In this document: one piece after another, positions 5,604 through 62,210 of the stretch
How positions within the stretch are numbered: the stretch's first letter is position 1
Layout: every line of letters starts with the position of its first letter
Assembly (NCBI GenBank): GCA_964016885.1
Contig: OZ024746.1
Location: 47,926,001 to 47,990,000, forward strand
Direction of reading: 5' to 3'
Length of the DNA stretch: 64,000 bases
Source of the DNA: Eledone cirrhosa
Lineage: Eukaryota
Notes under the pieces: generated by a model
Seen by the model: the letters and a program-made list of their open reading frames with translations, nothing else
Database searches by the model: none
What the model was told of the DNA's origin: nothing
Program-made: the position numbers and the translations under genes

Positions 5604-5648
5604 TATGCCCTTGAGAAGCCCAACTGGGCGAAACGTACGTAGGTGATA
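5604..5648 (+). ncRNA. Candidate minimal type I hammerhead ribozyme (U3-A8 core)
   Basis: CC-UUGAGAA-GCCC(AACU)GGGC-GAAA-CGUACG-UA-GG, with palindromic helix III ACGUACGU. Stem I is short and imperfect. Confidence 0.55.
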
Positions 5649-6027
5649 TTTTAAATAAGCATGTTTTAACGGTCTATTCTCCGATTTTTACTTTCCCACG
5701 TATATACATATATCCATATATATATACATATATATATACATATATATATACATATATACATATATATATACATATATACATATATATATACATATATATA
5801 TACATATACATATATATATACATATATACATATATATATACATATATATATACATATACATATATATATATATATACATATATATATATATATACATATA
5901 TATATATACATATATACATACATATATATATACATATATATATACAGATATATATATACATATATACAGATATATATATACATATACATATATATATATA
6001 CATATACATATATATATATACATATAC

Positions 6028-6325
6028 AACAACAATACGGCACAATTATTTCACCTCAATCGGCCCTGCTCTCTTCAACATCACACCAGGACACGTCAAA
6101 ACAGAAACTGACCACACAAAATTCAAGAAGTCTTTGGACAAATTCCTCCAAGTAATCCCGGACAAACCACCCACACCCGGATATGTCTCCGCAAACAGTA
6201 ATTCTCTTCTCGAATGGGCCATGGTGCCCAAATCCTGAATTGAAAGACTTCGCCAGGTGGTGCTATTAAGTTAGACATGGCCTGGGCCAATACTGGCCAA
6301 AACATTTCAAAGTTATTCAAAGTTA
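6028..6325 (+). mobile_element. CR1-type LINE family A, 3'-terminal ~300-bp fragment
   Basis: Essentially identical to 13501-13798. It ends in TTCAAAGTTATTCAAAGTTA, with microsatellite on both sides. Confidence 0.9.
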
Positions 6326-7517
6326 TACACATATACATATATATACACATATACATATATATACACATATACATATATATATACATATACATATATACAT
6401 ATACACATATATATATATACATCTGCACATATATATATATACATATACATATATATACACATATACATATATATACACATATACATATATATATACATAT
6501 ACATATATACATATACACATATATATATATACATCTGCACATATATATATATACATATACATATGCACATATATATATATACATATGCATATATATATAT
6601 ATATATATATATATACATATACATATATATATATACATATGCATATATATATACATATACATATATATATACATATATATATATACATATGCATATATAT
6701 ATACATATACATATATATATACATATACATATATATATACATATATATATACATATCATATACATATATATATACATATACATATCATATACATATATAT
6801 ATACATATACATATACATATCATATACATATATATATACATATACATATATATATACATATCATATACATATATATATACATATATATATACATATATAT
6901 ATACATATCATATACATATACATTATACATATACATATATATATACATATACATATATATATACATATACATATATATATACATATACATATACATATAT
7001 ATATACATATACATATATATATACATATATATATACATATACATATATATATACATATACATATACATACATATATACATATATATACATACATATATAT
7101 ACATATATATATATATATATATATATATATATACATACATACATACATATATATACATATATATATACATATATATATATATATATATATATATATATAT
7201 ACATACATATATATACATATATATATACATATATATACATACATATATATATATACATATATATATATACATATATATACATACATATATATACATACAT
7301 ATATATATATACATATATATATATACATACATATATATATACATATATACATATATATACATATATATATACATATATATATACATATGCATATATATAT
7401 ATACATATACATATATATATACATATACATATATATATACATATATATATCTATATACATATATATACATATATACATATATATACATATATACATATAT
7501 ACATATATATATACATA

Positions 7518-8375
7518 TAGTGTACGATAAACACGAAATGTGTTTACATTGCAACAGACAAAGTTAGCTATTAATGAAATAAACTAATAAAAGTGAATAC
7601 AATTTGTCTGTCTCGATATAAGTCAATAAAGACAATATTATATTGGCAACTGCCATGATTCCTGGACATATTTAAATTTCAAAATTCAAACCTGTTCTGT
7701 AGACGAATTTGAACCTCGAAACCCATTTTGTGTTTATCGTACACTATTGACTGCTCGGAAGAGCCCCTTCCTGGAGCTTAATTATTGTAAACGACTGAGA
7801 GTTTATTCTCAAAATATAATATAATGTATTGCTCCTTTATTGTATGAGCTGATCCTTAATCCTGCATAAGCGGCTGTTATTTCTAGCACCGTGAATGTGG
7901 GATAGCTAGTTTTGGCCTGCCTACCCACGTGTAGTCAGTCCTGCAAAAAATTTTTGATGTGATATAGACTAATCTTACTGGATTCCTGTTGATAAGCACA
8001 GAAGATTTGGATATCTCACTCTTTTATTTCTATTCCATTTCGATTCTCTTTATTTTTCAATTTACATTCCACCGTTGCGAAACTTATTTGGGTTTCGAGG
8101 TTCAAATTCGTCTACAGAACAGGTTTGAATTTTGAAATTTAAATATGTCCAGGAATCATGGCAGTTGCCAATATAATATTGTCTTTATTGACTTATATCG
8201 AGACAGACAAATTGTATTCACTTTTATTAGTTTATTTCATTAATAGCTAACTTTGTCTGTTGCAATGTATACACATTTCGTGTTTATCGTACACTATTGA
8301 CTGCTCGGAAGAGCCCCTTCCTGGAGCTTAATTATTGTAAACGACTGAGAGTTTATTCTCAAAATATAATATAAT
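7518..8375. mobile_element. Non-coding element with inverted plus partial-tandem architecture (Penelope pLTR-like)
   Basis: 7518-7725 is the reverse complement of 8089-8296 (208 bp). 7724-7825 is directly repeated at 8274-8375 (period 550). Both flanks are (TA)n. Confidence 0.65.
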
Positions 8376-9128
8376 ATATATATACATATATATATATATA
8401 TATACATATATATATACATATATATATACATATATATATATATATATATATACATATATATACATATATATATATATATATATACATATATATACATATA
8501 TATATACATACATATATATATACATATATATATATATATATATACACACATATATATATATATATATATATATATACATATATATACATATATATATACA
8601 TATATATATATACATATATATATATATATATATATACATATATATACATATATATATACATATATATATATACATATATATATATATATATATACATATA
8701 TATATATATATATACATATATATATATACATATATATATATACATATATATATATATATATACATATACATATACATATATATACATATATATATATACA
8801 TATATATATATATATATACATATATACATATATATATATATACATATATATATATATATATACATATACATATACATATATATACATATATATATATACA
8901 TATATATATATATATATATATACATATACATATACATATATATACATATATATATATATACGGCCTCGATATGAATACCCCCTCCGCCTCCGTGGTATTT
9001 TTTTCGTGGTTATAAGAGGCTTAGCTCTGTTTCTCGACCGTTATATCGCGTGACTATCTCCCCCTCCGCCTTTTGGGATTCTTTCTCACGTCGTGTAGAC
9101 GCGTTCTTGAGACTAGTAAAATGAGGTA

Positions 9129-9216
9129 TCCTCTTGATAAGTCGGCAGACCTCGCAAGGACTCTATATCTTTGATATATTGTTTTTGTTTATGCCACGAA
9201 ACTACGTAGTCGAGGA
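9129..9216 (+). ncRNA. Type I hammerhead ribozyme, U3-A8 variant, GUC cleavage triplet
   Basis: UCCUC-UUGAUAA-GU(C)GGCA...UGCCAC-GAAA-CUACGUAG-UC-GAGGA gives a perfect 5-bp stem I, a stem II and palindromic helix III ACUACGUAGU. It lies in the island 8961-9452. Confidence 0.8.
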
Positions 9217-60935: not shown

Positions 60936-61200
60936 ATCACCTTGATCACCTTGACCGACCAGTCTGTCGGGCGCCAATTGGCGTCGCTGGTCACAGCACG
61001 TCGTGTTGTTTTAGCCATAAGATAACGCCATCCTACTGGCTGGGCGGGCAGGCCGGTACTCATTTCTACAGCTGAGTAAACTGGAGCTACGTGAAATAAA
61101 GTGTCTTGCTCAAGGAAACAACACATCACCCAATCCCAGAATTGAACTCACAACCTTTCAATTGCAAGCCCAATGCTCTAACCACTAAGCCATGCGCCTT
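60936..61200 (-). mobile_element. tRNA-derived SINE with the same head and core as 4890-5284 but a different tail
   Basis: TGGCTTAGTGGTTAGAGCATTGG...GAGTTCAATTC...CCTTGAGCAAGACACTTTATTTCAC...CTCAGCTGTAGAAATGAG, then an unrelated tail ending TCAAGGTGATCAAGGTGATA. Confidence 0.82.
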
Positions 61201-61241
61201 CACATGTATATATATATGTATATGTATATATATATATATGT

Positions 61242-61306
61242 ATCATCATTTCATTTTGCGTCCGCTTTTTTCCTGCTTGCAAGGGTGGGACGGGAACTGA
61301 TTCTCG
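61242..61306 (-). mobile_element. RTE-type SINE 3' tail fragment
   Basis: AGAATCAGTTCCCGTCCCACCCTTGCAAGCAGG...GGACGCAAAATGAAATGATGAT matches 5209-5271. Confidence 0.75.
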
Positions 61307-61354
61307 CTTTACAACATATGTATATATATATATATATATGTATATGTATATATA

Positions 61355-62067
61355 CAGTGAATCTTCGCTTATCCGGACGGTCAAAACCAAATAGTTAGAA
61401 AAAGATCCGGTTAAGTGAAATATCTGGATAAGTGAATTCTAAAATCCCATTGTTACATAATGCTCGTGGTTTGTAATGTTTTGGCTTCTTTTAGTCAAAA
61501 TAAAAGACAAATGCTAAGTAAAGAAAGTTTATTAGAATAACAAAAGAACAGCTAGAATTTATAAGAAAATTAATTAAATAAGAATAACTAAAAACTTGGT
61601 AAAACTGAATTGAGTCAAACCATAAAAAGTTAGTGCTTTTTTAAAAATGAATAAATAGAAGATTGTTTTCGCGCTGAAGCTCGTCGTTCCGCTACCAGTC
61701 AACCACCACCCTCATGTTTATCGCACGTAAAAATGGAATCATTCCTGTGTCCCCTTTTCCGATTAATTCCCGCAGCAATTGTTTTCTGTAAATCCGCTTT
61801 AGTGTCTCCAACACTCCCTGGTCCATTGGCTGCATAAGTGAAGTAACGTTCGCCGGAAGAAATGCTGCCCGAATCTGTCCGTCTGCCGAAATCAAGTCCT
61901 CCTCATCCGGAGCTAGTATAGAAACGATATCCGGATAAGTGCATCTTCGCCTATCCGGATATCGCATAACCGGACGGCTATTTCTATACTACCTCCGGAT
62001 GAGGAGGACTTGATTTCGGCAGATGGACTGATTCAAGCAGCATTTCTTCCGACGAACGTTACTTCAC
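61355..62067 (-). mobile_element. Rearranged pogo/Tigger-like DNA transposon relic
   Basis: TA|CAGTGAATCTTCGCTTATCCGGA terminus and repeated TCCGGATAAGTG subterminal motifs. The DDE-domain peptide FLPANVTSLMQPMDQGVLETLKRIY is on the minus strand. Confidence 0.82.
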
Positions 62068-62170
62068 ATATACATACATACATATATATATATATATAAA
62101 GAAAAAAAGATGAAATCGAAAATGCAACTGGAGACTTATTTAAAAAAAATATATATATATTTATTTGGTT

Positions 62171-62210
62171 CCTTTACCGGTTTCGCAGTTCTTCTGCTTT
62201 TCAAATGTAG
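62171..62210 (-). ncRNA. Candidate degenerate hammerhead (U3-A8 core)
   Basis: UUGAAAA-GCAG(AAGAA)CUGC-GAAA-CCGG-UA with palindromic ACCGGU. Stem I is poorly paired. Confidence 0.42.

Follow-up and report, generated by a model that had tools for sequence, protein, structure and literature searches.

Nine hammerhead motifs in a microsatellite-rich stretch

We analysed 64,000 nucleotides of the Eledone cirrhosa genome (GCA_964016885.1, contig OZ024746.1, positions 47,926,001 to 47,990,000; hereafter the window), which carry nine motifs with the layout of type I hammerhead ribozymes, located in Penelope-like retroelements and in non-coding tandem repeats. The window has a G+C content of 25% and lies on a 103-Mb contig of the 3.0-Gb assembly. 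Purine-pyrimidine microsatellite makes up 53% of it, compared to 11% in 79 arbitrary 10-kb stretches, and the remaining sequence forms 39 islands (29,839 bases). A first-pass annotation made from the letters alone had described the nine motifs and seven different palindromes, all of which were found in place. We number the families by position: F1 (5604), F2 (9129), F3 (14154/18176), F4 (25791/27009), F5 (32122), F6 (46332) and F7 (62171).

The motifs have the core CUGANGA...GAAA...UH with a 3-8 pair, and helices I to III follow each other in type I order. The cores read UUGAGAA (5611), UUGAUAA (9134), CCGAAGA (14200 on the minus strand, 18185), CUGAUGA (25796, 27014), CUGAUGG (32178, minus strand), CUGAGGA (46341) and UUGAAAA (62204, minus strand). 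Thus, the C3-G8 pair is swapped to U3-A8 in three families (F1, F2, F7); the other deviations are C4 in F3 and A9G in the window copy of F5. Helix I is short at 5604 and 62171, and helix II carries inserts of 33-105 nt in four families. Two further half-motifs without a 5' core lie at 26405 (plus strand) and 45929 (minus strand).

Four families occur in elements that we assign to the Hydra clade below. The F1 hammerhead (5604..5648, plus strand) has its U3-A8 core at 5611-5617, a 4-bp helix II, the palindrome ACGUACGU at 5633-5640 and a predicted cut site after A5641, with a helix I of 2 bp and an internal loop; it lies in a ~100-nt 3' tail (5600-5700). F3 is present twice, once on the minus strand (14158..14204; C4 core CCGAAGA, ACAAUUGU) 1.6 kb downstream of the open reading frame (ORF) of its element, and once on the plus strand (18181..18227) in an inverted 3' copy (17426-18264) that is joined to a truncated 5' end. 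The F5 hammerhead (32122..32183, minus strand; CUGAUGG with A9G, AUGCGCAU) is part of a 3' tail in which a 20-nt duplication repeats the core and an assembly gap lies upstream. The F6 hammerhead (46332..46473, plus strand), also in a 3' tail, combines a 9-bp helix I and a 105-nt helix II with ACGAUCGU and a predicted cut after A46464. The inverted F6 arm (45709..45949, minus strand), which has a long tail, retains only the 3' half of the ribozyme (GAAA at 45929) and is 98% identical to a young subfamily.

The F7 hammerhead (62171..62208, minus strand; U3-A8 core, ACCGGU), whose helix I is broken to 1 bp, belongs to a Neptune-type element, of which 62099-62914 is the 3' part. The remaining two families are non-coding. 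F2 (9129..9216, plus strand) has a U3-A8 core, a bulged helix II of 57 nt, ACUACGUAGU and a predicted cut after C9211; its carrier is a tandem repeat of 591 bp, present here as an incomplete unit (8966-9400). F4 (25791..25872, plus strand; CUGAUGA, 51-nt helix II, ACUAAUUAGU, predicted cut after U25867) sits in the first of three tandem units (25531-27158). The middle unit (26405..26423, plus strand) kept only the 3' half after a short deletion had removed its 5' core, and the third again carries a hammerhead (27009..27090, plus strand).

The motifs exceed chance expectation

The 39 islands contained 4-7 motifs, depending on the threshold, whereas 150 shuffles of the islands that preserve dinucleotides averaged 0.00-0.03. 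No shuffle held more than two, and none of the 150 reached the observed count; the descriptor was tuned to the motifs, as its list of cores was picked after they had been seen. An independent descriptor without a palindrome rule, applied to the 79 arbitrary stretches, returned 41 matches, compared to 1-7 in each of eight shuffles. Perfect palindromes of at least 4 were present in 15 of these 41 matches and in 0-1 of those from shuffles. Genome-wide, a pattern that left the middle of helix III free matched 8,132 times, its reversed control 863 times. For the first 100 matches listed, a hand count gave 63 with a palindrome, where 1 in 16 is expected, and 88 in which the 3-8 pair is kept. Rfam gave no match to the motifs at gathering score, and the best 150 of 1,256 rows of an E-value scan were swamped by microsatellite matches to mir-297. 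As the descriptor, the genome-wide pattern, the conservation and the compensatory changes described below agree, chance is excluded, and we conclude on sequence grounds that all nine are genuine sequences of type I hammerhead ribozymes.

Of the survey matches without a perfect palindrome, 26 in number, most fall into a small set of additional families whose loops are not palindromic. Abundant families with such a helix III were seen at L217, L225, L266 and L267 and at L212, L233, L282 and L284 (ACCACUGGU; AGAACU; L numbers denote loci elsewhere in the genome). Monomer-type or other forms of the hammerhead therefore coexist with palindromic ones in this genome.

Five families are the 3' ends of coding Penelope-like elements

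The first-pass annotation had taken the carriers to be mostly non-coding. This was wrong: five of the seven families are the 3' ends of autonomous elements, with ORFs for reverse transcriptase (RT) and a GIY-YIG endonuclease upstream on the same strand, and the non-coding look arises because the window holds mostly 5'-truncated tails. Its further proposal, that many distinct ribozyme-bearing families related to Penelope sit in TA arrays, is borne out by ORF linkage and by the junctions with the arrays. The ribozyme-bearing islands have no BLAST match to one another, yet four families encode homologous proteins.

The window itself contains one such ORF, which belongs to F3 and is truncated at its 5' end (15779..17455, minus strand). 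Its 558 codons include the RT motif YRDD, a CxCx5C linker, GIY-YIG, and CxxC and CxH; it is 91-92% identical to ORFs at L196 and L197, and the island holds an 849-bp inverted repeat (97.8%). For F1, a Hydra ORF ends 309-377 nt upstream of the ribozyme in 16 of 34 copies, and an ORF of 927 aa is open at L191. The ORF lies 1.0-1.2 kb upstream in F5 (collinear at L198, L199 and L200) and 2.0-2.5 kb upstream in F6, where L192 and L193 show a repeat-ORF-repeat layout. In F7, a GIY-YIG ORF with CX4CxxC and CCHH is found 1.0-1.5 kb upstream and is collinear at three loci (L204, L206, L229). In all five families the distance between ORF and ribozyme is constant and the strand the same.

The order RT, CxCx5C linker and C-terminal GIY-YIG in F1, F3, F5 and F6, together with insertion into (TA)n and a partly tandem, partly inverted structure with a tail, is that of the Hydra clade. 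Its hallmarks RW[KR], DKT, YRDD, CxCx5C and CxxC/CxH were all found: RWK in F1, DKT in a second F1 copy, and RWR and DKT in F3 and F6. The N-terminal motifs were not seen in F5, the copies of which are truncated. The F7 linker, CX4CxxC, is of the CX2-5CxxC form that marks the Neptune clade, in which it stands with a GIY-YIG domain with CCHH behind the RT, and the F7-linked ORF scores above the Pfam cut-off for GIY-YIG; the F7-linked copies that we saw are all broken. By these signatures we classify F1, F3, F5 and F6 as Hydra-clade and F7 as Neptune-type Penelope-like elements. Against this stands that the Hydra ORFs gave no Pfam RT match and only sub-threshold GIY-YIG matches; their identification as RT comes from motifs and an Atlas lead. 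Naiad, our first guess, was dropped; the endonuclease is C-terminal.

The motifs lie 40-80 bases inside the 3' end of the element. Each family has two modal 3' ends, 38-76 and 131-219 nt past the cut site, followed by microsatellite that is typically (TA)n. By extrapolation from 26 copies in 790 kb, the seven families amount to ~10^5 copies in the genome, most of which are dead, 5'-truncated tails.

F2 and F4 are non-coding, retrozyme-like repeats

F2 is a non-coding tandem unit of 591 bp (longest ORF from a methionine, 75 aa) with a tandem spacing of 585-595 and 7,458 exact 23-mer matches in the genome. F4 forms non-coding tandem arrays of ~558-bp units (4,337 genome pattern matches), and its palindrome is perfect in 98 of the first 100 matches listed. 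No Penelope-like ORF was located upstream of any of 28 F2 or 73 F4 copies. Non-coding tandem units that each carry a type I hammerhead are characteristic of non-LTR (long terminal repeat) retrozymes, and F2 and F4 likely borrow the machinery of autonomous Penelope-like elements, although none of the five elements compared emerged as a partner for either, which counts against this view. One F4 array extends over at least 67 kb (G000:C2:312.59-312.66 Mb; L073-L085) and constitutes a ribozyme-bearing satellite. The F2 unit at 8966-9400 assembled as a single 591-nt loop in two sequencing runs of unknown kind that are labelled as other organisms; we did not use this loop as evidence of circular RNA, as tandem DNA at low depth explains it equally well.

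Core and palindrome are conserved, and a dimer fold is predicted

The core is kept across genomic copies. Variants present in at least three copies affected 1 of 102 core and palindrome columns, compared to 97 of 468 other columns, among them 37 of 234 in helix II; rare variants were of a similar order in all column classes. The contrast covers six families, without F2, for which the palindrome itself had served to select copies. It is inflated, since similarity guided the choice of copies and these share a common descent. The first-pass annotation had proposed a covariation analysis, and sister sequences do change in a compensatory manner, both in the palindrome (ACAAUUGU/ACGAUCGU and ACUGUACAGU/ACUGAUCAGU) and in helix I (UAUU-AAUA/UCUU-AAGA). 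In all seven families, the predicted dimer fold was 11-20 kcal/mol better than two monomer folds, as calculated with nearest-neighbour energies that treat the hammerhead core crudely. By sequence and folding prediction, the motifs thus combine a palindromic helix III with a second copy in cis: at the direct repeat-ORF-repeat loci L192, L193 and L197, ribozymes of the same family lie 4.3-5.3 kb apart on one strand.

We therefore favour, with a probability of roughly 0.7, the reading that type I hammerheads near the 3' end of five autonomous Penelope-like elements and in two non-coding repeats cleave as pairs of tandem copies. The palindromic helix III fits a predicted cleavage as dimers. The palindromes of two tandem copies in one transcript would pair into one long helix III, and the helix I strands of both copies would be swapped as well. 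Two cuts would then free a unit-length RNA, likely to be ligated into a circle or otherwise read through, and the RT and GIY-YIG endonuclease of the element would insert this template into TA repeats. As every insertion runs past the cut site, the template was either re-ligated, as proposed in PMC4209133, or never cut.

Several observations weigh against efficient cleavage. Among 41 F1 copies, 40 have a helix I of only 2 bp; in F7 it is reduced to 1 bp in the most frequent variant, which accounts for 16 of 49 in a sample skewed towards the copy in the window. A9G is shared by F5 copies and often present in them. Crippled variants of the ribozyme have thus spread. In published assays, dimers of minimal Penelope hammerheads cleaved at low levels (PMC4209133), and eight of nine frog retrozyme dimers were inactive. 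The motifs may accordingly be true hammerhead descendants that cut only marginally or need not cut at all. They would then persist as a structural handle, with which the template pairs or to which the RT binds, or simply because they travel with the 3' end. Amplification of the F1, F5 and F7 variants, insertions that extend beyond the cut site, for which an uncleaved template accounts equally, weak or absent activity in the assays and the spread of Naiad elements without hammerheads all speak for this possibility. It has to explain, however, why the conserved part is the catalytic core, including the covarying 3-8 pair (88 of 100 listed) and U16.1-H17, none of which a pairing handle needs. We hence regard it as unlikely, though deserving real weight.

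A second alternative concerns F2 and F4, whose 10-nt palindromes could instead fold back within one copy into a helix III of 3 bp closed by a tetraloop, so that each unit would cleave as a monomer like the invertebrate retrozymes. Such active monomer folds were predicted within 1.5-2.5 kcal/mol of the best fold, which also weighs against pairing, and efficient cleavage of the monomer has been published for most hammerheads of invertebrate retrozymes. A monomer has no need of a self-complementary loop, yet the loop is kept in 98 of the 100 F4 matches listed and sister families alter it compensatorily. We consider monomer cleavage of F2 and F4 most improbable and favour cleavage by tandem pairs for them as well.

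Palindromes are distinct in the window and shared across the genome

The first-pass annotation had also suggested that distinct palindromes restrict dimerisation to copies of one family. The palindromes do differ among the seven window families, but genome-wide they are shared between unrelated ones: ACAAUUGU is used by at least five (F3, two in the survey of 79 stretches and at least two in the genome-wide matches listed), and ACUAGU and ACGCGCGU by two families each. Among nine families with 8-mers of the form AC..GT, four identical pairs occurred, compared to 2.3 expected at random. A selected self-recognition code against cross-dimerising families could nevertheless account for seven families with seven palindromes. 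None of 42 cross-pairs among the seven combines a helix I of at least 3 bp with a helix III of at least 4 bp, and two-way compatibility among 21 families is limited to one sister pair. This incompatibility stems mainly from helix I, as the outcome of random divergence; because helix I is swapped too, cross-family dimers are predicted to fail. Drift explains this, and no selection is needed. In addition, partners within a tandem transcript are of the same family by construction. Together with the reuse of palindromes across unrelated families, this makes a selected code very unlikely.

Two F6 copies bear clustered A>G changes

The window copy of F6 carries a cluster of A>G changes on the sense strand (46260..46430, plus strand): 16 of 18 private substitutions are A>G, none is T>C, and no A>G change lies 3' of a G. 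The binomial p for this excess of A>G is 5e-11. In a second F6 copy (L290:2993-3895), nine of 11 private changes are A>G; they are common to both inverted arms and hit the GAAA core. A 5' G precedes 0 of 25 A>G changes at the two loci, compared to 24 of 155 unedited sites (p = 0.03). Clustered A>G changes on one strand that avoid a 5' G, as found at both loci, are the footprint expected of ADAR hyper-editing, and they are consistent with ADAR editing before reverse transcription. After removal of microsatellite artefacts, no clusters of T>C, G>A or C>T were present in 441 rows. L290 (one of 100 listed) gives no estimate of frequency, because it was found with a pattern open to A>G. The A>G sites were not enriched at paired positions of the local fold; the duplex for editing could be supplied by read-through of inverted insertions. 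An assembly error may also be the source of the cluster in the window: contigs from four runs did not cover the edited stretch. Flags for A>G changes with the F6b reference (31 rows, query 1-191) and at L037 (F3) were discarded as microsatellite artefacts, and the A>G differences in the inverted F6 arm of the window are subfamily variants and no editing scar.

One may speculate that Penelope-like RNAs fold into long duplexes and that reverse transcription carries them into the germline after hyper-editing by ADAR. Editing would then write A>G changes into the ribozymes and diversify them and, together with the swapped helix I, yield dozens of mutually orthogonal dimer ribozymes in one genome; we view this extended scenario as doubtful. 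If confirmed, the ADAR-like copies would represent RNA edits made heritable via a retroelement.

Relation to known hammerhead-bearing elements

Much of this organisation is already in print. Published work covers dimer hammerheads with palindromes in Penelope-like elements, cores with U3-A8, 10-bp dimer helices, Hydra elements inserted in TA arrays, and retrozymes that depend on them. For Penelope-like elements of metazoans, Cervera and de la Pena 2014 (PMC4209133) describe type I hammerheads in terminal repeats with a small palindromic helix III, the U3-A8 variant, many families per genome with mostly single truncated copies and inverted pairs, and propose dimer cleavage and a circular template. 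In comparison, helix III palindromes are 6-12 nt long in the families reported here, and their helix II can hold inserts of 50-116 nt. For the Hydra clade, Craig et al. 2021 (PMC8557442) report the same C-terminal GIY-YIG without CCHH, the CxCx5C linker, RWK and DKT, insertion into (TA)n and a hammerhead at the 3' end whose helix II is mismatched at its base, and one octopus family is among the elements listed there. The 26 Hydra rows listed have a helix III of 3-4 bp with loops of 1-3 nt and no perfect even palindrome, in contrast to the perfect palindromes in Eledone, and the elements described here, with 3' untranslated regions of up to 2.5 kb, are longer than the Hydra examples given there.

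F2 and F4 resemble non-LTR retrozymes (PMC7229834; Li et al. 2026, 10.64898/2026.07.22.740005): the tandem units are AT-rich and non-coding, every unit has a single type I hammerhead, and the repeats are scattered as anything from monomers to long arrays. Their units of 560-590 bp exceed the 170-400 nt of PMC7229834 and fall inside the 51-972 bp of 10.64898/2026.07.22.740005. Unlike the non-LTR retrozymes described in these texts, F2 and F4 have inverted ends of the Penelope type and target TA, and are known here from DNA alone. Repeat-type hammerheads with a palindromic stem or loop III were likewise listed in PMC3088659, including a 10-bp dimer helix III in Aedes, natural U3-A8 and a U4C tolerated in vivo; in the available text they are not tied to Hydra-clade elements.

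The differences from published hammerheads are of degree, namely perfect even palindromes and helix II inserts of up to 116 nt, and as the kind of element has been published, our main finding extends a catalogue. Our literature search found no report on cephalopod Penelope hammerheads, heterodimer tests or ADAR-edited genomic copies, which does not imply their absence from print. This genome holds many copies of Hydra-clade elements and retrozyme-like repeats, which have been active recently and whose long, perfect palindromes are unlike the published Hydra examples. They are a natural set of variants on which the role of the ribozyme and the pairing rules of dimers can be tested.

Other repeats in the window

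The island at 7530-8363 is non-coding and has a Penelope-type layout (196-bp inverted and 93-bp direct repeat, TA flanks), with no hammerhead by the descriptors used. A fragment at 2998-3324 (minus strand) matches Pfam Na_Ca_ex (E = 1e-6) and is likely a host exon; the window may therefore lie in an intron of a gene for a sodium/calcium exchanger. A young long interspersed nuclear element (LINE) family with AP endonuclease and RT, the copies of which are 94-100% identical, occupies 6035-6320, 12106-13793, 19130-20175 and 41952-44770 and is also flanked by TA arrays. Copies of a second LINE family, with an RT followed by a PHD finger and a (GAT)n end, lie at 1316-2912, 29517-31146 and 59002-59916. 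Between 21312 and 57315, a repeat of 430-630 bp with a C2H2 finger-like end is present in seven copies within a 26-kb TA/TACA array, and two islands are exact duplicates of each other (49164-49607 and 56872-57315).

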